A stretch of DNA of 64,000 nucleotides, from the sequence record NC_047776.2; one strand, written 5' to 3'. Source of the stretch: Escherichia phage ESCO5. The notes under the pieces are model-generated. The model was not told the origin of the DNA. It worked only from the letters and a program-made list of their open reading frames with translations, and made no database searches. Below are positions 40,005-55,773 of this stretch, piece by piece. The translations under genes and the position numbers were made by a program. The first letter of the stretch is position 1. Each line of letters starts with the position of its first letter.

Positions 40005-40798
40005 TATTCCTCCTTTCTAATGTTCTCCAGAACCCACTGAAGTTCTTTTAAACTTAAACTTCTTACTCCCGCAGTTTTACTAGCTTCAGCTTTAAGTAAC
40101 GGGTAAGCCTCAATGATACGCGTTTTAAGATCAGAAGTCAAGGCTTTTAAAAAATAGGTAGATGCTTCAGATAAAGAATCTTCTTCTGATAACACTTTAC
40201 CTGCACTTGCTCCCGCTCTCCTAACGGCTATATCGTAGTCTTTACTGTTACCTAATACGAATAGTCGATTCTCTCCTAAAACAACGGGAGAACGCTTCTC
40301 GTTGCGTTTAATCCATATCTGGAATACACAAGGAACATCCCAAGGTTCTCCATGAAGAATAAAAGATCCTTTTGGACATTCTTCTTCGTAAAGAAGATGC
40401 ATGTGGGGATTTAGTTTGTGTGCAAAAAAGATTTTTTGAAATGTGCGAGGCAAGATAAAACAAATACCACCTTCGTTATCCAACATTTCAGCACAATGGT
40501 TAAAGAACTTAATGGCAAGACTAGCATTTTTTCCAAACGGAGGATTACCGACAAAAGCAGTTACACTACCAACAGACTCAACAGATTGAGCTAAAAAATC
40601 TGCCTCAATACAATCTTCAAACTTAGGGTCAATATCAAAAGAAGTTATGTTTTTAAAACAAGAAGAGAAAGCTCCTTCTCCCGCAGATGGTTCTACGTAG
40701 TTAGCTTCCTCTCCAAAAATTTCTTTGATCTTATCACATAAGAACCCCGCATAAGCGGGGTTAGTGTAATATTGATCAAGTGTGTTCAACTTGCTCAA
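40004..40798 (-). CDS. N6-adenine-type (amino) methyltransferase, probable DNA MTase
   Basis: 264 aa; SAM-binding motif I VEPSAGEGAF and catalytic motif IV VGNPPFG in gamma-class order; stop overlaps polymerase start. Confidence 0.6.
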   Translation of the reverse strand: MSKLNTLDQYYTNPAYAGFLCDKIKEIFGEEANYVEPSAGEGAFSSCFKNITSFDIDPKFEDCIEADFLAQSVESVGSVTAFVGNPPFGKNASLAIKFFNHCAEMLDNEGGICFILPRTFQKIFFAHKLNPHMHLLYEEECPKGSFILHGEPWDVPCVFQIWIKRNEKRSPVVLGENRLFVLGNSKDYDIAVRRAGASAGKVLSEEDSLSEASTYFLKALTSDLKTRIIEAYPLLKAEASKTAGVRSLSLKELQWVLENIRKEE

Positions 40799-46753: not shown

Positions 46754-47009
46754 TTACAACCTCCTTAATAGCTACTGCACAGTTCTTACAAATACATTGA
46801 CCTTTGTTCTTAGAAATTTCAATGTAAGGTTCATTTTCGTTTTCTCCGCGTCGTGAATCGTATATTACAGTATTGAAGCAGACAACGCAAATGTTTTTAA
46901 TAACAACATATTTTTGCACTTTTTGTTTAGTGCGAAAATTTACTTCAATGACTTCTCCCATCAGTGAATCTCCCCTAAAATGTTGTTTTGAGACATTACT
47001 GCGGAGCAT
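46731..47009 (-). CDS. small zinc-ribbon protein
   Basis: 92 aa; CVVC...CICKNC cysteine pairs. Confidence 0.45.
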   Translation of the reverse strand: MLRSNVSKQHFRGDSLMGEVIEVNFRTKQKVQKYVVIKNICVVCFNTVIYDSRRGENENEPYIEISKNKGQCICKNCAVAIKEVVNENAWDQ

Positions 47010-47245
47010 TCTACAGCATCATGAGTCCTTGCAAAACGCTCCCACAGCACAGCATCTACTTTAAGAACCACACAAGGATAAATACTGTCGTTGATCATAT
47101 CAATGCTATATTTATCTACATCCTTTTCATCTTCCATAAACAAAGTAGCGTATGCTTCCAAATGTTTACGGGTGTAGTATACGTCCTCTTCGGTAAGACC
47201 GACAACCAGGTAACTTGCTACAACAACAGTATTATCTTCTTGCAT
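46961..47245 (-). CDS. hypothetical protein
   Basis: Start moved to internal ATG behind GGGGAG RBS just downstream of hydrolase stop (track start 47308 overlaps hydrolase gene). Confidence 0.45.
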   Translation of the reverse strand: MQEDNTVVVASYLVVGLTEEDVYYTRKHLEAYATLFMEDEKDVDKYSIDMINDSIYPCVVLKVDAVLWERFARTHDAVECSAVMSQNNILGEIH

Positions 47246-47246
47246 T

Positions 47247-47768
47247 TTAACTCCCCTTTGGTAGATAGAAACCATGCACTTTATCTCGATAAACAAGACG
47301 CATATCACGCTCCCAGTGTGTCCTTATATTCCGTTTCTTGAAGTATAGAGCACCTTTAGTAACATCTAAAACAGACCGCAATTCAGGAAAATGTTTCTCT
47401 AAATAAAGTAAACGCTCCGCTATTGCTTTTGCTTCCTGCCATTTATCTTTCTCTGTCACGTTAAAAGTTTTCGCATATGAGAATTGCCCTTTCTGGAACA
47501 AGACTCCCTTGACTGTGTTAGGGAAGTAGGCATCATTTCTTCTGTTGATTACCACATTCCCAACGGCATTCATTCCTTTTTTACCCAGACCGCGACCTTC
47601 TGCGTAAATTGCACAAGCTAATAGAATTTTATCATTATATTGCTTTGTACATTTGTGAACTACTTTAGCGGTTTTTACGTTTGCAGCTTCGGCTTTCGCC
47701 ACAACAGGTGTAAATGTAAAAGCAGTTAAGGATAGTAACGCAACTGTTACAAAGTTTTTTATCAGCAA
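47247..47768 (-). CDS. secreted cell-wall hydrolase (SleB/CwlJ-like)
   Basis: 173 aa; TTG start with AGGAGG RBS; N-terminal signal peptide ending VVAKAEA; core ILLACAIYAEGRG...AVGNVVINRR...FPNTVKGVLFQKGQFS matches SleB-type hydrolase family. Confidence 0.75.
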   Translation of the reverse strand: MLIKNFVTVALLSLTAFTFTPVVAKAEAANVKTAKVVHKCTKQYNDKILLACAIYAEGRGLGKKGMNAVGNVVINRRNDAYFPNTVKGVLFQKGQFSYAKTFNVTEKDKWQEAKAIAERLLYLEKHFPELRSVLDVTKGALYFKKRNIRTHWERDMRLVYRDKVHGFYLPKGS

Positions 47769-47800
47769 ATTTTGCCTCCTTTTTAAGTTAACGAATTTCT

Positions 47801-47829
47801 AGTATAACACGATAGAGGCTTTATTGCAA
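47801..47829 (-). promoter_or_regulatory. sigma70-type promoter for hydrolase gene
   Basis: On minus strand TTGCAA, 17-nt spacer, TATACT, about 30 nt upstream of the hydrolase start. Confidence 0.5.
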
Positions 47830-47849
47830 GAGGGGGATTTCTCCCCCTC
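47830..47849 (-). terminator. stem-loop / terminator after TerD gene
   Basis: GAGGGGGA-gaaa-UCCCCCUC on minus strand followed by UUGCAAU. Confidence 0.5.
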
Positions 47850-47864
47850 AAAATCATTTGTTAA

Positions 47865-48467
47865 TTATGGACATTCATACCATTCTTTTTTACCACCGAA
47901 GGCCATTACCACATCGCAAATATCCAGACCAGCTTTACCTACACCATATGCTTTCAGCTTCCATTCTCCATCTTCACGAACCAGGGAAGCCACGTGGCAG
48001 ATTGTGTTGCCAGCTACTTCAGGAGCCAGGAAGTCAAAATCCAGAATTTCCACATTACGCTCGGAGTCGAAGATTTTAAGCATACCTTCAGAAGCATGAC
48101 CAAAACGTTTCAGACCTGTATCATCATCAATAGTCAGAACAAAGGCAATCTCTTGTGCATCAGGAGAGATTTTAGCCAGAGTAATATCAATCTGCTCCAT
48201 GCTGCCAGTTCCATCACGAACATCGTCACCAGCAAAGGTAGAACGTTCAGGATCAAACTTATTAGCATAGCAAACCAGATGACGTGCAGACAGCATTTCA
48301 GGATTGCCAGCGGCATTGTGACGACAAACCAGTGCACTTACATCCAGATCCAGTTTAGAATCAGATTTCCAAGAGAACTCCAGGCGTAGTTCTTTCAGAG
48401 CCGGAGCAACTTTCTTCAGGGAAATTTTTTCGCTAGAGCCTTTTTTCAGGGAAATTTTATCAGTCAT
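47865..48467 (-). CDS. terD: TerD-domain protein
   Basis: 200 aa; aligns along its length to E. coli TerD: ISLKKG..ISLKK start, LDLDVSALV, GDDVRDGTG, IAFVLTIDD, GEWKLKAYGVGKAGL. Confidence 0.9.
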   Translation of the reverse strand: MTDKISLKKGSSEKISLKKVAPALKELRLEFSWKSDSKLDLDVSALVCRHNAAGNPEMLSARHLVCYANKFDPERSTFAGDDVRDGTGSMEQIDITLAKISPDAQEIAFVLTIDDDTGLKRFGHASEGMLKIFDSERNVEILDFDFLAPEVAGNTICHVASLVREDGEWKLKAYGVGKAGLDICDVVMAFGGKKEWYECP

Positions 48468-48482
48468 CTTTTGTCTCCTCTA

Positions 48483-48752
48483 TTATTTAAGTGTAATACC
48501 AGTTACAGTCAATTCTACTTCCAAAAGCTTAGATGTGTTTTGGATTGATACTAATTGTGCATGATGGTTTAGTTCTACAGCAGAATAATCATTTTCCCCA
48601 TCATCTACTTTTAAATAAACAATGATTTCACTAAGGTCTAAACCATTTTCGTCAAATGCATTTTCATAGACGAAAGTATCTCCTACATCCAAATCTTTAA
48701 TGGTAAGGCATCGTTTATTTACTTTTTGCTCATCAATTTCGAAGTTTAACAC
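48483..48752 (-). CDS. hypothetical small protein (DLDVGDTF family, paralog B)
   Basis: 89 aa; shares IKDLDVGDTFVYENAFDENGLD...VTGITLK with paralog A. Confidence 0.55.
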   Translation of the reverse strand: MLNFEIDEQKVNKRCLTIKDLDVGDTFVYENAFDENGLDLSEIIVYLKVDDGENDYSAVELNHHAQLVSIQNTSKLLEVELTVTGITLK

Positions 48753-48981
48753 TTCTTCCTCCTAATATTATCTCCGGTTTATATATACGAAGAATTATAG
48801 CATTTTCATTTTCTTTGTCAACCCATTCTTCATAATCAGGCCATACATGAATCTCTACTCTACTTACAATATCTTCCATTCGCACAGTCCCAATGAAATA
48901 CTCTTTGAGACTGCACATAATGAAAGCTTCTCTCTCGCGCCAATAATTTTCTATGACTTGAGAGGCAAGCTCGTCGATCAT
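48733..48981 (-). CDS. hypothetical protein
   Basis: 82 aa ORF between vWA gene and paralog B. Confidence 0.45.
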   Translation of the reverse strand: MIDELASQVIENYWREREAFIMCSLKEYFIGTVRMEDIVSRVEIHVWPDYEEWVDKENENAIILRIYKPEIILGGRSVKLRN

Positions 48982-49772
48982 TTTTTAGCACCTACTTTAA
49001 CAACCCACTCTCCGAACTCTTCAGATAAGAGTTTGTCATAAAGCTCTGAATCTGTCAAGTCTAAATCTTTAATGCCAATAAAACCAACATTATCATAAGC
49101 ATTTGCCAGTTCTTTCAGGAAGCCAAACTTCTCATTACCAACGCCAACCATGAACCAATAAATAGGTTTATTCTTATTCTCTTCAATAAGACGACGAACA
49201 GCACTAGGATCACCATTCTCACCATCCGTCTGGAAGAATACAACACCAGGGGTAACGTCAGCACCTGGTTCAGACACAGCTACAACCTTTTCACGCTCTA
49301 CAGATACTGTTTCAGTTTTACCAAGCAGACGATTAAAGAAGCCTTTCTTTGGAGCCTCTTCTTGTACCACTTGTTTAGTGGTAATATATTTGGTAACAGT
49401 GCCAAAATACTCATCGTAGATATCTGCCATTACAGGGGCGTAATTTGTTCCACCTCCGATACGAACATTACGCATACATTTACCAACATAGTCATCGTAA
49501 ACGTCTGCTGTTGCTGGAGTAAGCTCTTGGGAACTCGTATTGAAGGCCCACATATCAATTTGTTGATTATCGTCGAACAGCATACCAAAAGGAAGCAGTT
49601 TACCTACAAAATCACTCACTACCCCACTAGAATATAGACCATGCATACTACCAGAAATATCTAGAGCACATGCTACACGAAGAACAATCTTACCTTCATT
49701 CAGGTTCTTATTCTTTTTCAGAGAGAAAGCAAGGTTTTCTTGACGTTTTTTCAGGCTGATTTTATCGGACAT
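48978..49772 (-). CDS. vWA-domain protein (TerY-like)
   Basis: 264 aa; MIDAS motif in VLRVACALDISGSMHG; GGGTNYAPVM; N-terminus MSDKISLKK resembles TerD start. Confidence 0.7.
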   Translation of the reverse strand: MSDKISLKKRQENLAFSLKKNKNLNEGKIVLRVACALDISGSMHGLYSSGVVSDFVGKLLPFGMLFDDNQQIDMWAFNTSSQELTPATADVYDDYVGKCMRNVRIGGGTNYAPVMADIYDEYFGTVTKYITTKQVVQEEAPKKGFFNRLLGKTETVSVEREKVVAVSEPGADVTPGVVFFQTDGENGDPSAVRRLIEENKNKPIYWFMVGVGNEKFGFLKELANAYDNVGFIGIKDLDLTDSELYDKLLSEEFGEWVVKVGAKK

Positions 49773-49773
49773 A

Positions 49774-50052
49774 TTATTTCTCCTTCTTAAGTGTAATGTT
49801 GGTAACTTCTAAATCTACTTCCACCATATTTGTATCTGGCGGGATGCAATGAGTATAGCCTCGTTGTGCTAGTGATCCATTAATACAAATCGCACTGTTT
49901 GTGGAATTTTTAATGAACACCAAGTTACGGTAGGTATCCAACCCTGCGTCTTCATAGGCATCATAATACATGAATGTGTCCCCTACGTCAAGATCTTCGA
50001 AAGCAATAGGTAAATCCTGACCTTTTTCTTCTTGAATATTGAATCTAAACAC
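49774..50052 (-). CDS. hypothetical small protein (DLDVGDTF family, paralog A)
   Basis: Start moved to GTG behind GAGGAGG RBS, giving 92 aa; FEDLDVGDTFMYYDAYEDAGLD...VTNITLKKEK. Confidence 0.5.
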   Translation of the reverse strand: MFRFNIQEEKGQDLPIAFEDLDVGDTFMYYDAYEDAGLDTYRNLVFIKNSTNSAICINGSLAQRGYTHCIPPDTNMVEVDLEVTNITLKKEK

Positions 50053-50608
50053 GCATACCTCCTCTACCAATTTTGAAGCCCAAATCGTAAGCTTCCTTAG
50101 TAATCTTTTGTAACTCACTTATAGGAAGTGTTACAAGAGGATCATCTTCTTCAATTTCCATCTTGTCATCTTCTGTTTCAATGAGAGTATTATGCACTTT
50201 GTGATAAGGGTTGTCAACACGTTTAAACTTATTCTTTTCTGTGCTGAAAAAACAATCTGGATCTTCTTCACCATCACCCCAACCTTGATTAGGATCTCCG
50301 TCAGATTGTTCTGTAGGGATTTCACCTGTAAAGTACTCTTCCAGCACCATAGCAATACCGTCCCTTGGATTTGAGGAATGCATTAAATCACAAACCTTAC
50401 CCCAATCCATAGCCCATTCGAACCGTTCACGAACGCCATTTTCATCCTCTTTTCCAGAGAAAACACAACCATAACTATCATAGTTGCCATACATCTCTTC
50501 AATAACAACACCGTCTTTCAAAAGAAAGAGGTAGCAAGGTGATCCGTCGAAAGAAGTAGAAAGGGCAGCTTTGCCCGATTCTTTGCACAAAAAACTAAAA
50601 CAACCCAT
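50045..50608 (-). CDS. hypothetical protein
   Basis: 187 aa acidic protein. Confidence 0.5.
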   Translation of the reverse strand: MGCFSFLCKESGKAALSTSFDGSPCYLFLLKDGVVIEEMYGNYDSYGCVFSGKEDENGVRERFEWAMDWGKVCDLMHSSNPRDGIAMVLEEYFTGEIPTEQSDGDPNQGWGDGEEDPDCFFSTEKNKFKRVDNPYHKVHNTLIETEDDKMEIEEDDPLVTLPISELQKITKEAYDLGFKIGRGGMRV

Positions 50609-50811
50609 TACAAACCCTCCTTCAGATTATCAAGAGCTACAGTGGTTTCACAAAATTCTCCATAAGCTTTATGATGTTCCAGAAAAGCTTCGGGTCCACC
50701 CCAGTCATTATCTTGTGTATTCCAACCATCAATAAAAGCATCTTCAATGATTGTGATCAGTTCTTGTCGGGTTAACTGGATAATATTAGGATCGTTATCG
50801 TAGTTAAACAT
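50608..50811 (-). CDS. hypothetical small protein
   Basis: 67 aa ORF; start overlaps upstream small ORF stop. Confidence 0.45.
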   Translation of the reverse strand: MFNYDNDPNIIQLTRQELITIIEDAFIDGWNTQDNDWGGPEAFLEHHKAYGEFCETTVALDNLKEGL

Positions 50812-50977
50812 CTTCTTCCTCCTCTAAAATATGAAACCCGTAATTACAATAGTCCTGAAAGGTTTCGTGCGCAAGATCTTCTATATCCTCTTGAGACATA
50901 TCATCTTCAATTTCGATATCCACAACCTCATTGCATCCACACCAAGCAGTTTCAATATTCACTCGTAATATTTTCAT
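50804..50977 (-). CDS. hypothetical small acidic protein (not in ORF track)
   Basis: About 57 aa; ATG overlaps upstream stop (TAATG) behind GAGGAGGAGGAG; fills 165-nt gap. Confidence 0.35.
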   Translation of the reverse strand: MKILRVNIETAWCGCNEVVDIEIEDDMSQEDIEDLAHETFQDYCNYGFHILEEEEDV

Positions 50978-51174
50978 TACTCCTCCTCCTCATTGAAGTC
51001 AATATCTGCAAGGAGTTCGAATTTACGGAAGTTACGACAACCTTCATAAATATAACAATCACGACAAACTGCTAGAACACTTGGGGGATATATGCCTCCC
51101 ATCGGTGCGAATCGTTTTTCGTCATCATAACGGACACCAATGTCTTCATCAATTATATAGATACGGATTCTCAT
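50977..51174 (-). CDS. hypothetical small protein
   Basis: 65 aa with Cys pairs. Confidence 0.45.
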   Translation of the reverse strand: MRIRIYIIDEDIGVRYDDEKRFAPMGGIYPPSVLAVCRDCYIYEGCRNFRKFELLADIDFNEEEE

Positions 51175-52283
51175 TTACCAAGCCCTCGTTTCACAGCAGC
51201 TACCATCCCGTCTTCCAGAGATTGAACTTCATTAATATAATCAACACGAGCAGCACGGGCTTCCGTATTGATGCGGTTAGTTTCTTCCAACATCTTAACC
51301 AAGTTTTCCTGATCGTGACGCAGAGTTTCAATATCCAACACTTGACGGTTAGCCAGTGCTGCTGCTTCGATCTGATTCTGTGTGGCAAGATCGCTACCTA
51401 GTTTAATTGCCAGGTTAAATTCATCAAGAACGTTATTCTGCGTCTCTGCTGCTTTCATTTGACGTAAGCTCTCGATATACATTGAGAAGTTAGCAGAGTA
51501 AGCAGGAATAACATTATTTACTATGTTACGCGCAGATCGCATTAAGCTTGCAGAAACTTTTTGCATACCTTGTACACGCGGTCCCATTTGGACACACAGT
51601 AGGCGCAACGCCTTTAAATCTGCAATACGAATCTCCAGGAGATCCAAAGTATCTCGGATCACTTGTCGCTGTTCTACGGCATCTTCTGGAAGAGCAGCCA
51701 AAGCTTGTTCTTCTTTTTCATAGGTTGCTGTTAGAAGCTGCATATCTCGGTTCAAACTTGCAGCATATTGTCCAATAGCTTGGTGTAGCTTTTCAAGATA
51801 TACCAAGGAATCTTCTTCTTTGCGAATATCCATTTGAAGGTTCTTTACCAACTCTTCAATACGGTTATTAACATTATCAAACTCCCCAAACAGGTCTTCT
51901 TTCATACCCATAACTTTTTTAATGAGTTTAGTAATACCCTTGCTTTGTTTAATAGAGTTTGGATCAAGTTGTTTTGCCTGTTTAATCAAGGCTGTGAGTC
52001 GTTCACTCATCTGATCGCCTTGATTACTACGTTGATGTTTTAACACCTCGGCATTCAAGGAACGCAAGGTTGTTCCTGCCTCTGCCCCAATCTCTTCGAT
52101 CTCTTGTCGGGTCATAGAAGGTAAAACTGGAACTTCTTGCGGTGCTGCTGGTGCATAAACAGGACTGGCATCTAACACACTTGGAGCAAATACAGATTTA
52201 CTTGCATCTGTTGTTGCAGCGAATACACTCATTTCAGACTTCTTCTGACCACCAGTAGCTGCTTTTAAAAATGGACTTGTCAT
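51171..52283 (-). CDS. TelA-like (toxic anion resistance family) protein, candidate
   Basis: 370 aa helical/coiled-coil protein; assignment rests on size, composition and linkage to TerD/TerC; not motif-verified. Confidence 0.4.
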   Translation of the reverse strand: MTSPFLKAATGGQKKSEMSVFAATTDASKSVFAPSVLDASPVYAPAAPQEVPVLPSMTRQEIEEIGAEAGTTLRSLNAEVLKHQRSNQGDQMSERLTALIKQAKQLDPNSIKQSKGITKLIKKVMGMKEDLFGEFDNVNNRIEELVKNLQMDIRKEEDSLVYLEKLHQAIGQYAASLNRDMQLLTATYEKEEQALAALPEDAVEQRQVIRDTLDLLEIRIADLKALRLLCVQMGPRVQGMQKVSASLMRSARNIVNNVIPAYSANFSMYIESLRQMKAAETQNNVLDEFNLAIKLGSDLATQNQIEAAALANRQVLDIETLRHDQENLVKMLEETNRINTEARAARVDYINEVQSLEDGMVAAVKRGLGK

Positions 52284-52870
52284 TCTTCATTCTCCTCTTC
52301 TGCATCTCTTATATATGGTGAAACACCGTACTCTTTAGCTACTTTAACCCAATCATCCCATTTATACAACCATAATTTTCCTTCAGTTCCTTCTTTATCT
52401 GATTTCAACCACATGTTAGGTTGCTTGCCTGGGTACATGCGATTAGGTTTACGATTATAACCTCTAACACATCTTGTCGCAAACCTATCTACCAGAACAA
52501 GAACATATTTATATTCGTGGTTCAACGGCTCTTTGGAAGTGGCTTTAGGATTAGCTCCTAATTCTGCTGCCAGTTTTTGCCAATGAGCACCGTGTCTACT
52601 AAACTTACCCATACAACCATCAATAGCATGAGCAATTTCGTGCTTCATTGTATCCACGATCATATCTCTTGTAGAGTTCTTATGCAAGTGCCAATTTACA
52701 ACAACAATTTTATCTCGGTAGTTGCACCAACCGAAAGAGTTATTAACTTTGTTTCTAACACAAGCTTTATATCCTGCTTCACGTAACATGTTGTAGTAAA
52801 CAGGAAAATCTTCTTTTATTTCCTGCATCACTTCCCACCACAAGAGTTGCAAGTCTCTCTCGGTATGCAT
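52280..52870 (-). CDS. SprT-like zinc metallopeptidase
   Basis: 196 aa; HEIAHAIDG (HExxH) followed by RHGAHWQKLAAELG, as in SprT/WLM family. Confidence 0.55.
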   Translation of the reverse strand: MHTERDLQLLWWEVMQEIKEDFPVYYNMLREAGYKACVRNKVNNSFGWCNYRDKIVVVNWHLHKNSTRDMIVDTMKHEIAHAIDGCMGKFSRHGAHWQKLAAELGANPKATSKEPLNHEYKYVLVLVDRFATRCVRGYNRKPNRMYPGKQPNMWLKSDKEGTEGKLWLYKWDDWVKVAKEYGVSPYIRDAEEENEE

Positions 52871-52873
52871 AAC

Positions 52874-53467
52874 TTACACCTTAAAAGCGAAATGCGTGGT
52901 CGTGGCTTCAAAATCAGGGCCAGATAAACTTGCACTGAAATCTGAAATATTTGTAATTAAAAAGCTTTTATGCATACCTAACACAGCCACGCTTTCAATA
53001 TCTTCTACTAACATTTCAATCATGTTAGAAACATGGCTGAACGTAGAGTTTTGTTTTTTGATGGTGTAGAAAGAAAGATTCCCACCTGCTATATAAGACA
53101 CCTCTTCAAAATCTTTAATCGTATATTGTGTGCCATCAGTAAAGAAAATGGTAGCTTTATTAGTAGCACGTTTCTTGTTTTTTGGTCCTTTTTTACGTTT
53201 ACTGCGAGTAGGCAAACCGTTTGGAAATACCGTAGCTACAAATTCTTCAGGAGAAACCTCCTTACCGAAATCATAACCGTAAGAAACAGCGTCTATAAAC
53301 TCGTCGTCTTCATTTTTAAAATAATGAAAATAGGGCCAATTTGAGAGATTATCGAGCATCTTATGCTCATCCACAGCAGAGAACGTATCCCTCAAAGCAC
53401 GTGTGATTTGCAAAGCATTAGGCAAACTTTTAACACCTGTAATGGAAGTACGAATAGAAATTGTCAT
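52874..53467 (-). CDS. hypothetical protein
   Basis: 197 aa ORF. Confidence 0.5.
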   Translation of the reverse strand: MTISIRTSITGVKSLPNALQITRALRDTFSAVDEHKMLDNLSNWPYFHYFKNEDDEFIDAVSYGYDFGKEVSPEEFVATVFPNGLPTRSKRKKGPKNKKRATNKATIFFTDGTQYTIKDFEEVSYIAGGNLSFYTIKKQNSTFSHVSNMIEMLVEDIESVAVLGMHKSFLITNISDFSASLSGPDFEATTTHFAFKV

Positions 53468-53481
53468 TGTTTTTCTCCTTA

Positions 53482-53919
53482 TTAACGTCGCTTGCTACGA
53501 GATGAACTCTTTTTACTTAAAGGACTATTGTAAGATTTACGAGTTGTATAGCTACTATTTGTTTTAAAAGTTTGTCTCGGCTTTTCATAAGTTTTTATCT
53601 CTTGTTTAGGCTTACTATAAAAATTAGTTTTCGGTTTAGGTGTATTATAATGCTTATTAATAATCGTTCTGTTATCGTTATAATCCCCACTGCTACGATT
53701 ACTACCGCCACTCATCATATGCCCTAACAACATACCTGTAGCAAACTCACCAACACCGCTACTACTAGAACCGCCACCATTGTTGATAATAGTTGTATCT
53801 CCGTCAGATCCTTGTTGAGCGTATTGTTGAGGAGGTTGTTGGTATTGTGCAGGATTTGTTTCATCCTCGCAAGCTGTTAAAAAGATACAACCAATTAAAA
53901 TCAGGGCTAGTTTTTTCAT
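53482..53919 (-). CDS. predicted lipoprotein
   Basis: Start moved to ATG behind GAGGA RBS; MKKLALILIGCIFLTAC signal peptide with lipobox LTAC; Gln/Pro/Gly/Ser-rich mature part; basic C-terminus. Confidence 0.55.
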   Translation of the reverse strand: MKKLALILIGCIFLTACEDETNPAQYQQPPQQYAQQGSDGDTTIINNGGGSSSSGVGEFATGMLLGHMMSGGSNRSSGDYNDNRTIINKHYNTPKPKTNFYSKPKQEIKTYEKPRQTFKTNSSYTTRKSYNSPLSKKSSSRSKRR

Positions 53920-54106
53920 ATTTGCTTTCCTCGTTTTGGCTATTAATACATCTGTGTTTGAAATCTCCAGAGAAGCAATAAAGTTGCTCTCCATCTCGGT
54001 ATAAACTCACTTTACTGCCGTTGATTACGCTTGTCAATACAAAAATTACAACAAACAACCCTATTGCAAAACAAATATTTTCAAACACAACCAACAAGTA
54101 TTTCAT
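53861..54106 (-). CDS. small membrane protein overlapping lipoprotein gene start
   Basis: 81 aa; N-terminal TM FAIGLFVVIFVLTSVI; ATG overlaps upstream TGA (ATGA); 3' end overlaps lipoprotein start in another frame. Confidence 0.4.
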   Translation of the reverse strand: MKYLLVVFENICFAIGLFVVIFVLTSVINGSKVSLYRDGEQLYCFSGDFKHRCINSQNEESKYEKTSPDFNWLYLFNSLRG

Positions 54107-54453
54107 TTTAAAAATACCTCATCATCAGTTTCATTATCCCAGAAGAACAAGTCCCAACCATTCGGATCATTCCATTTAGCTGCTGGAGAAGTCCATATTT
54201 GCTCGATATCAATATTCAAAACTTCACCGTTTCGTTTTGAAACAGCTTTAGTTAATTCCCAACGGGATACAGGCTCCACTTCCCCTGAACCACTCCCACA
54301 ACAAGCTACCACATTAGGAGGCAAATTAATTGGATCTTTGGTCACAATCATAACGCTTACCCCAGGGTAAACTTTTGAAAGATAATCTAAAACGTAATCC
54401 ACATCACCAGATAAATCCCAAACAAGTTCTTGAATTTCATCAAAATTATTCAT
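54103..54453 (-). CDS. hypothetical acidic protein
   Basis: 116 aa ORF. Confidence 0.5.
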   Translation of the reverse strand: MNNFDEIQELVWDLSGDVDYVLDYLSKVYPGVSVMIVTKDPINLPPNVVACCGSGSGEVEPVSRWELTKAVSKRNGEVLNIDIEQIWTSPAAKWNDPNGWDLFFWDNETDDEVFLK

Positions 54454-54495
54454 AAGTCTCTCCTATAAAATAGCCTCCCGAAGGAGGCTCATCTA

Positions 54496-55470
54496 TTAAA
54501 CAGCAGCTTCTTCTTTTTCAGGGAAGATAAAGCTTGCAATAACACCAAGAGATAATGTGCCTAGAACAATCATCAGACTTACGTTAGGGGAAATATCATG
54601 CGGGAGGAATGACCACTTGGCATGAAGTGTTTCACCGAACGGGTGATACATAAGTTTAGCACCAACAAACACCAGAACCACAGCAACAGCTTTCTCTAAG
54701 TGAACCAGATATTTCACAGCTACACTTAACACAAAGAAAAGTGCACGTAAACCAAGAACAGCCATCAGCATTGCAGAATAAACTAGCAGAGGTTCTTGTG
54801 TCACACCGATTACAGCCGGAACTGAATCAAAAGAGAAGACAATATCTGTAAGCTCAATAACAAACACACAAAGAAGAGCAGGAGTTGCATATTTAATACC
54901 ATTCTTAATGGTAATGAACTTTTCACCATCTAGTGCATTGTGCACAGGCAGAACTTTACCTACTAAACGAACAGCCCAATGCTTAGAGTAATCAATATCC
55001 TCTTCTTCGTCACCACCTTTGATGATAGCCACGGCAGACCAAGCTACAATCAAACCGAACAACACTTGGACCGACCAATGAAGGTTAAACAAAGCGGTCC
55101 CTGCTGCAACAAAAATACCTCGGAAGACAATGGCTCCTGCAATCCCCCAAAGTAAAATCTTATGTTGAAGATGTGTGCTCTTAATTCCAAAGCTTGCAAA
55201 AATTGCCATGAATACCATCAGGTTATCTACAGAAAGACTCTTTTCCAACACATAGCCACTTAGGAAAAGCGCGGCAAACTCTTTACCATGTTCTACCCAA
55301 ATGAATGCGTAATATCCTAAAGCTAAAGCAATCCAAAAAACAGACCAAAGCAAAGCAGATTTAATTCCAATTTCTTTATTCTCTTTATGACCAAAGAAAT
55401 CGATACCAATAGACAATGCCAAAATACCAACTAAAACAACTACATCAATAATTGGGAAACCGAGTTGCAT
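54496..55470 (-). CDS. terC: TerC-family integral membrane protein
   Basis: 324 aa polytopic membrane protein; LEKSLSVDNLMVF and ELTDIVFSFDSVPAVIGVT duplicated TerC signature. Confidence 0.8.
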   Translation of the reverse strand: MQLGFPIIDVVVLVGILALSIGIDFFGHKENKEIGIKSALLWSVFWIALALGYYAFIWVEHGKEFAALFLSGYVLEKSLSVDNLMVFMAIFASFGIKSTHLQHKILLWGIAGAIVFRGIFVAAGTALFNLHWSVQVLFGLIVAWSAVAIIKGGDEEEDIDYSKHWAVRLVGKVLPVHNALDGEKFITIKNGIKYATPALLCVFVIELTDIVFSFDSVPAVIGVTQEPLLVYSAMLMAVLGLRALFFVLSVAVKYLVHLEKAVAVVLVFVGAKLMYHPFGETLHAKWSFLPHDISPNVSLMIVLGTLSLGVIASFIFPEKEEAAV

Positions 55471-55551: not shown

Positions 55552-55773
55552 TTATTTTGTTGAATGAGAGGAAAAGATTCCTCGTAATACCGCCAGAATA
55601 AACGAAACACAAACCACGGTCCAGAAGGTTACTGGGACAGTGATATCTGCATGACCCATAACTTCAGCAACATAGTTGTAAGCCAGCAACAGTAACCAAG
55701 CTGGAATCAAACTAAGCATAAAAGCAATAACAAAAAAGCTTACCACCGCAATAATACCTGCAAAAACACCCAT
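55552..55773 (-). CDS. small membrane protein
   Basis: 73 aa; 2-3 hydrophobic segments. Confidence 0.45.
   Translation of the reverse strand: MGVFAGIIAVVSFFVIAFMLSLIPAWLLLLAYNYVAEVMGHADITVPVTFWTVVCVSFILAVLRGIFSSHSTK

Follow-up and report, generated by a model that had tools for sequence, protein, structure and literature searches.

Sec-dependent, holin-independent delivery of a muralytic enzyme is known from other phage systems. The Oenococcus phage fOg44 produces Lys44, a Sec-exported endolysin, and P1 Lyz and R21 are SAR endolysins whose Gly/Ala-rich N-terminal domains are not cleaved. Each of these proteins is the only endolysin of its phage, and they belong to enzyme families other than the one considered here. 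Hydrolase_2, the SleB/CwlJ family, has been listed as one of the catalytic domains often found in lysins of phages that infect Gram-negative hosts (PMC8223927), and papers on BME3, T5-like Salmonella phages, Septuagintavirus and CB7 describe a SleB-type hydrolase encoded far from the holin and carried besides another lysin, with its role left open. Statements of “two endolysins” have also been published (PMC12210895; PMC11180984), and the homologue in Certrevirus, CB7_83, has been described as toxic in E. coli and as carrying a signal peptide (PMC7344957). One preprint from 2026 that deals with a coliphage endolysin was considered as a further relevant source and set aside, as it describes an unrelated SAR lysozyme.

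A gene of this type was examined in Escherichia phage ESCO5 (NC_047776.2), within a 64,000-nt stretch of DNA that is referred to here as the window. The gene is already known and annotated, and the question of its role has already been raised in the literature, so that overall this study is a confirmation of an annotated gene and not a discovery. What is new is a conserved cassette of hairpin, promoter and TTG start codon, comparative evidence in favour of signal-peptide cleavage, and a set of synonymous sites that are nearly frozen. With moderate confidence, we interpret the product as an auxiliary, holin-independent murein glycosidase that is exported by Sec, acts in the periplasm at low level and aids lysis. 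It would then be the second murein-degrading enzyme of the phage, and it is probably not the main endolysin. The principle of delivery would be shared with Lys44 and the SAR endolysins; unlike those phages, relatives of ESCO5 encode a second, cytoplasmic lysozyme.

The open reading frame (47247..47768, minus strand; 173 aa) begins at a TTG codon (47766-47768, minus strand), with the Shine-Dalgarno sequence AGGAGG located 6 nt 5' of it (47775..47780, minus strand), both read directly from the sequence. A GenBank search found the 3-kb piece around the gene to be 98–99% identical to dozens of genomes of Phapecoctavirus, a genus of phAPEC8-like E. coli myoviruses of ∼150 kb within the Stephanstirmvirinae. 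The protein is 98–99% identical to many GenBank records (Phapecoctavirus and Justusliebigvirus; phAPEC8 and phi92-like phages), in which the gene is named “putative cell wall hydrolase SleB” or “endolysin”. The annotated SleB hydrolase of the phAPEC8/phi92-like phages is the same gene, with a shared order of TerD, gap, hydrolase, small ORFs and glycosyltransferases, and no substantive difference from ESCO5. Some public gene calls start at an internal ATG: RefSeq record NC_052654.1 (21248-21574) gives a product of 108 aa from which the signal peptide and the catalytic Glu57 have been dropped, and PP856721.1 (4136-4519) gives a SleB-like product of 127 aa that lacks the non-ATG start and the signal peptide. 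Entries that begin in this way without signal peptide and catalytic Glu, as in the 108-aa RefSeq case, are unfit for use. Two records carry other host names, MG065650.1 (“Campylobacter phage B15”) and OP562383.1 (“Acinetobacter phage vB_AbaM_ABPW7”); these are 98–99% identical to E. coli phapecoctaviruses over the genes compared here, and their host labels look doubtful.

The initial annotation had recognized a SleB/CwlJ-type catalytic core, and profile, structural and alignment evidence all agree with it. The Pfam profile Hydrolase_2 (PF07486; SleB/CwlJ) matched aa 62–168 at E = 2e-17 and 64.1 bits (gathering cut-off 27 bits), covering profile positions 3–100 of 100, and the protein also matched PHROG 938, “endolysin”. 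In a phmmer search against PDB sequences the only matches were the SleB catalytic domains 4F55 and 4FET, in which E57 aligned to the Glu of GESRG. An AF2 run with 15 close homologues was poor (pLDDT 57) and was superseded by a run with 71 diverse sequences, which gave a pLDDT of 86 overall and >93 in the domain. Foldseek comparison of this model with the PDB again returned 4F55 and 4FET as the only significant matches (probability 1.0; TM 0.73–0.75, target-normalised), while comparison with viral models returned many phage “cell wall hydrolase SleB” proteins. E57, N75 and R76 were invariant in all 71 homologues aligned. The Glu57 codon lies at 47598-47600 (minus strand), and, by analogy with SleB, the enzyme is most likely a lytic transglycosylase that uses this residue. 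The predicted mature protein (47250..47684, minus strand) is a single-domain Hydrolase_2 enzyme of ∼145 aa, 16.8 kDa and pI ∼10. Two cysteines, Cys40 (codon 47649-47651, minus strand) and Cys52 (codon 47613-47615, minus strand), are invariant in the clade and probably form a disulfide in the periplasm.

The likeness to the Bacillus spore-cortex lytic enzymes SleB and CwlJ is limited to the catalytic-domain fold and the Glu motif. The SleB equivalog TIGR02869 scored 52.5 bits against a cut-off of 236.5, with only profile positions 79–159 matched, and a Pfam search of the phage protein found no PG_binding domain, whereas Bacillus SleB carries an N-terminal PG_binding_1 domain. On these two grounds, a bona fide SleB was ruled out. 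To our knowledge, muramic delta-lactam, the determinant of SleB substrate recognition, is absent from E. coli murein. The wider Hydrolase_2-like family is large (17,212 clusters at E <1e-3), and in Agrobacterium and Rhizobium phages such domains are found inside proteins of >1000 aa, which raises the idea of a virion-associated lysin that pierces the wall at DNA injection. The ESCO5 product is instead small, stands on its own and carries an export signal, and its gene lies apart from the structural module, on the other strand; we regard a virion role as very improbable.

The N-terminus, encoded at 47685..47768 (minus strand; aa 1–26 or 1–28), has the predicted architecture of a signal peptide and consists of MLIKN (n-region), FVTVALLSLTAFTF (h-region) and TPVVAKAEA (c-region). 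The n-region is basic (K4), the hydrophobic core of 14 residues is followed by P21, and the c-region contains two overlapping AXA sites, AKA and AEA, each of which fits the −3/−1 rule and predicts a signal peptidase I cut after A26 or A28. A charged n-region, an h-region within the usual ∼7–15 residues and small residues at −3/−1 are thus all present in the sequence, as judged by a crude heuristic only. By the same heuristic, 81% of 268 family members appeared signal-peptide-like as compared to 8% of 60 control ORFs from the window. Neither a lipobox Cys nor a twin-Arg (RR) motif was seen on reading the N-terminal sequence, so that lipoprotein and Tat signals were dismissed. In the AF2 model aa 1–32 are unstructured, with a pLDDT of ∼50.

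The Sec-type signal claimed in the initial annotation is supported. Its description as cleavable has to be weighed against an N-terminus that stays uncleaved and, as a signal anchor or a tether of the SAR type, would keep the enzyme bound to the inner membrane until depolarisation released it. An uncharged run of 20 residues is present near the N-terminus (aa 5–24), 40% of them Ala, Ser or Thr; conservation is higher over the n- and h-regions together (76%) than over the catalytic domain (67.5%); and in the Pakpunavirus homologue the N-terminus is an anchor with no AXA site. T4 RI (PMC8385771) is a precedent for ambiguous assignments of this kind. On the other hand, the strongly hydrophobic core extends for only ∼14 residues before the Pro, the h-region, unlike the Gly/Ala-rich SAR domains of P1 Lyz and R21, has no glycine, the catalytic domain is preceded by a conserved AXA site and ∼10 linker residues, and the N-terminal segment lacks a Cys for control of the P1 Lyz type. 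The conservation of the h-region is also, at least in part, a nucleotide-level effect (see below). In the c-region, mean identity among 15 close homologues was only 42%, yet all of them kept small residues at −3/−1 ahead of (A)NVKTAKVVHKC. Small residues were likewise found at these positions in the proteins of Vequintavirus (…PVVA|AP), Seunavirus (…PVLA|KE), T5-like phages (…SQA|SH) and Cr30 (…TEA|SK). This comparative evidence favours cleavage, probably after A26 or A28, and the ESCO5-type signal looks cleavable where SAR domains are not; an anchored enzyme is a live rival that we nevertheless consider unlikely.

The 5' portion of the gene shows an unusual pattern at the nucleotide level. 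Across codons 2–40 (47649..47765, minus strand), synonymous sites are almost frozen as compared to the rest of the gene. Counting only columns with an invariant, degenerate amino acid across seven lineages, the identical codon was used by all seven in 10 of 20 columns within codons 2–40 and in 2 of 48 elsewhere (Fisher p = 3e-5), and a 24-nt string, TTAACTGCTTTTACATTTACACCT, which reads TTA ACT GCT TTT ACA TTT ACA CCT, was identical in six of the seven. Conservation of an mRNA structure was rejected as the cause (z = 0.22; unfavourable covariation; one predicted helix broken in P0013 and P0017), and no overlapping ORF was seen by eye on either strand of the conserved region. Recent recombination would fit three close lineages, but seven lineages share identical codons, and constraint is therefore the more likely reason for the persistence of the tract. 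Selection for particular non-optimal codons is known in signal-sequence coding regions, and it is a possibility that the frozen codons reflect selection of this type.

Upstream of the start codon lies a sigma-70-type promoter (47801..47829, minus strand) with −35 TTGCAA (47829-47824), a 17-nt spacer and −10 TATACT (47806-47801). The spacer ends in TGT, giving an extended −10. Our promoter scan scored this site 9/12, which by itself is not above chance, as 35 such sites were found in 8 kb where 23 were expected. The claim in the initial annotation that the gene has its own promoter is nonetheless well supported, because the site falls within a 96-bp intergenic gap and is conserved in nine lineages. 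The full motif occurs once in the window, and the idea that it is a repeated phage-specific element was dropped. Immediately adjoining the −35, and 3' of the TerD gene, is a GC-rich hairpin (GAGGGGGA-GAAA-TCCCCCTC; 47830..47849, minus strand) with a folding energy of −17.2 kcal/mol (z = −3.1). Several lineages have a T-rich tail after the hairpin, which is weak in ESCO5, where the window shows no good U-tract, and a terminator scan of the window did not call it. It appears to be an insulator of terminator-like type that separates the hydrolase gene from TerD. We also observed a full 12/12 match to the sigma-70 consensus (TTGACA-16-TATAAT with TG) at 48794..48821 (minus strand), inside an 82-aa ORF (48733..48981) and upstream of the ORF at 48483..48752.

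For the upstream alignment, the nine lineages comprised the window plus two phages from GenBank and six contigs of metagenomic origin, with protein identity to the window ranging from 76% to 45%. The cassette order was the same in all nine: GC hairpin, TTGC(A/C)A, 17 nt, TGnTAnAAT, ∼20 nt, GGAGG, 5–6 nt and TTG. The stem sequence of the hairpin varied while its position did not, and both GGAGG and the TTG start were invariant across these Stephanstirmvirinae-type lineages. The upstream hairpin and the conserved weak start codon thus add to the promoter that had been noted initially. Early, low-level synthesis by the host RNA polymerase is suggested by the combination of hairpin, extended −10 sigma-70 promoter and weak TTG. 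A literature search for Phapecoctavirus transcriptomes returned nothing usable. The Vequintavirinae homologues start at GTG or TTG directly after a classical terminator and have no promoter, and low expression looks like a design common to these and the Stephanstirmvirinae, which fits the reported toxicity of CB7_83.

The hydrolase gene is part of a leftward block of DNA-metabolism and Ter genes, and the order TelA, vWA (TerF-like), TerD, gap, Hydrolase_2, small ORFs, glycosyltransferases and primase/helicase was kept down to 45% identity. One nucleotide after the hydrolase stop is the ATG of an acidic 94-aa ORF (46961..47245, minus strand; PHROG 16257, unknown function), which is probably co-transcribed with the hydrolase. 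In relatives, a small ORF of similar size is found at the same downstream position, the comparison being one of size and position only. The 94-aa product has no transmembrane segment and was dismissed as a holin. Indeed, none of the ORFs flanking the hydrolase encodes a transmembrane segment, in agreement with the initial annotation that no holin is adjacent, and the small ORFs on either side matched only families of unknown function in Pfam and PHROG.

A Ter-type stress-response set occupies 47865..55470 on the minus strand, and its synteny with the hydrolase persists at identities as low as 45%. It includes TerD (47865..48467), a vWA-TerF-like gene (48978..49772), a TelA-type “tellurite resistance” gene (51171..52283) and a TerC-like membrane protein with nine TMDs (54496..55470), all on the minus strand. 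Three small envelope proteins are encoded upstream of the hydrolase on the same strand, and all fall into PHROGs with no assigned function: one of 73 aa with two TMDs and a class II holin-like topology (55552..55773, minus strand), an 81-aa protein with one N-terminal TMD (53861..54106, minus strand) and a lipoprotein with an LTAC lipobox (53482..53919, minus strand). These are possible holin/antiholin candidates.

Homologues with ∼33–36% identity were found in Vequintavirinae (rV5, PVP-SE1, CB7_83, CR3_087), T5 (T5.083) and Pakpunavirus (JG004 gp029). Like the ESCO5 protein, they are small, have an N-terminal export signal and are encoded in an early or replication module, with a different endolysin alongside. 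In Vequintavirus and Seunavirus a rho-independent terminator comes directly before the gene and rIIA/rIIB follow immediately downstream of it, and the exported SleB-like gene of Vequintavirus overlaps the start of rIIA; these copies have a terminator but no promoter, in contrast to ESCO5, which has its own. T5.083 is situated amid tRNA and early genes, and the Pakpunavirus homologue adjoins the DNA ligase gene. The T5-like and JG004 copies differ from ESCO5 in starting at ATG rather than TTG, and JG004 gp029 in having an anchor in place of an AXA-containing signal. Because homologues elsewhere are also found in early or replication modules, the location is typical for the gene family. The initial annotation had considered the position atypical for a lysis gene, a view that is not supported: the position is shared by the copies in Vequintavirinae, T5-like phages and Pakpunavirus, and phages of the ESCO5 group in any case have their lysis genes scattered, with the T4-E-like lysozyme amid nucleotide metabolism and the spanins before the terminase.

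Such placement might also point to an early periplasmic role apart from lysis, such as superinfection exclusion, changed cell growth or vesiculation. In its favour are the early-type promoter, the presence of the gene in early or replication modules of four unrelated phage groups, its position directly upstream of rIIA/rIIB in Vequintavirinae and the constant co-occurrence of another lysin. However, PADLOC gave no meaningful match and no defence or anti-defence model for the hydrolase gene and its neighbours, and no partner protein was conserved across the phage groups. Overall, we consider a role of this kind improbable.

The other lysis genes of close relatives bear directly on whether the hydrolase is the endolysin of the phage. 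One close relative with a full annotation encodes a T4-E-type lysozyme of 166 aa (Pfam Phage_lysozyme) without an N-terminal hydrophobic segment, located among nucleotide-metabolism genes, and has Rz-like spanins encoded just before the terminase gene. The T4-E-like lysozyme was found at ≥95% identity in 63 phage records and at 60–90% in 68, and the SleB-like protein in 63 and 67 records of the same identity classes, or ∼130 Stephanstirmvirinae records each. Stephanstirmvirinae therefore appear to carry both enzymes. For ESCO5, where the lysozyme gene would lie outside the window, we infer its presence from relatives to which the 3-kb query is 99% identical. In PQ433349.1, the second ORF named “Rz-like spanin” (40480-40662) begins MDKVSTPV… and has no lipobox; the start or reading frame of this o-spanin is probably mis-annotated.

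Since the relatives encode a separate, signal-less T4-E-type lysozyme, the suggestion in the initial annotation of a holin-independent secreted endolysin is unlikely in the sense of a sole endolysin, and a Lys44-type arrangement does not describe phages whose close relatives have a T4-E-like Phage_lysozyme. Nor does the gene resemble that of a canonical holin-dependent endolysin, given an export signal, no adjacent transmembrane ORF and a sigma-70-type promoter. It could still be the principal endolysin, of the same kind as Lys44 of fOg44, if it were exported by Sec and stayed inactive until a holin or pinholin collapsed the membrane potential, with the T4-E-like lysozyme as the accessory enzyme. 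Many GenBank records and PHROG 938 use the name “endolysin”, the homologue CR3_087 has been said to be implicated in host lysis, CB7_83 was toxic on expression, and in Certrevirus a holin candidate with two TMDs overlaps the homologue (PMC7344957). These points are countered by the co-occurrence of the conserved signal-less lysozyme across the subfamily, by the lack of a holin-like ORF beside the ESCO5 gene, and by a sigma-70 promoter and weak TTG that favour early, low-level over late, bulk synthesis. Furthermore, T5-like phages have the homologue, yet their holin-adjacent endolysin is an M15 peptidase. A principal endolysin is, in our view, unlikely.

Our preferred reading, an auxiliary exported glycosidase, can be put as a sequence of steps. 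The hairpin after the TerD gene would insulate the hydrolase from upstream transcription units, and its extended −10 promoter, strong Shine-Dalgarno sequence and weak TTG would have the host RNA polymerase transcribe it early and at low level. The Sec signal peptide would carry the hydrolase across the inner membrane with no need for a holin, signal peptidase I would remove the N-terminus after A26 or A28, and the C40–C52 disulfide would form in the periplasm. The mature enzyme would then cut murein as a lytic transglycosylase via Glu57, so that the sacculus may be loosened or remodelled ahead of or alongside lysis, and in this auxiliary role it would support the T4-E-type lysozyme and spanins.

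More tentatively, and with less confidence than we place in the reading for ESCO5 itself, the homologues in Stephanstirmvirinae, Vequintavirinae, T5-like phages and Pakpunavirus could represent a distinct class of weakly translated, early, Sec-exported lytic transglycosylases that are periplasmic before lysis and are not endolysins. In Stephanstirmvirinae, output might be tuned by a nucleotide-level element in the signal-peptide coding region. Possible jobs of such a class include pre-conditioning of the sacculus for spanins or holins, a change in envelope growth and exclusion of competitors.

Large virulent coliphages used in therapy carry at least two murein hydrolases. In its mature form (145 aa, pI 10), the domain described here is an enzybiotic candidate. 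If it is true that an exported enzyme acts before the holin fires, this would add an extra step to the order of holin, endolysin and spanin, and such pre-holin action would account for the retention of the gene in several phage families.
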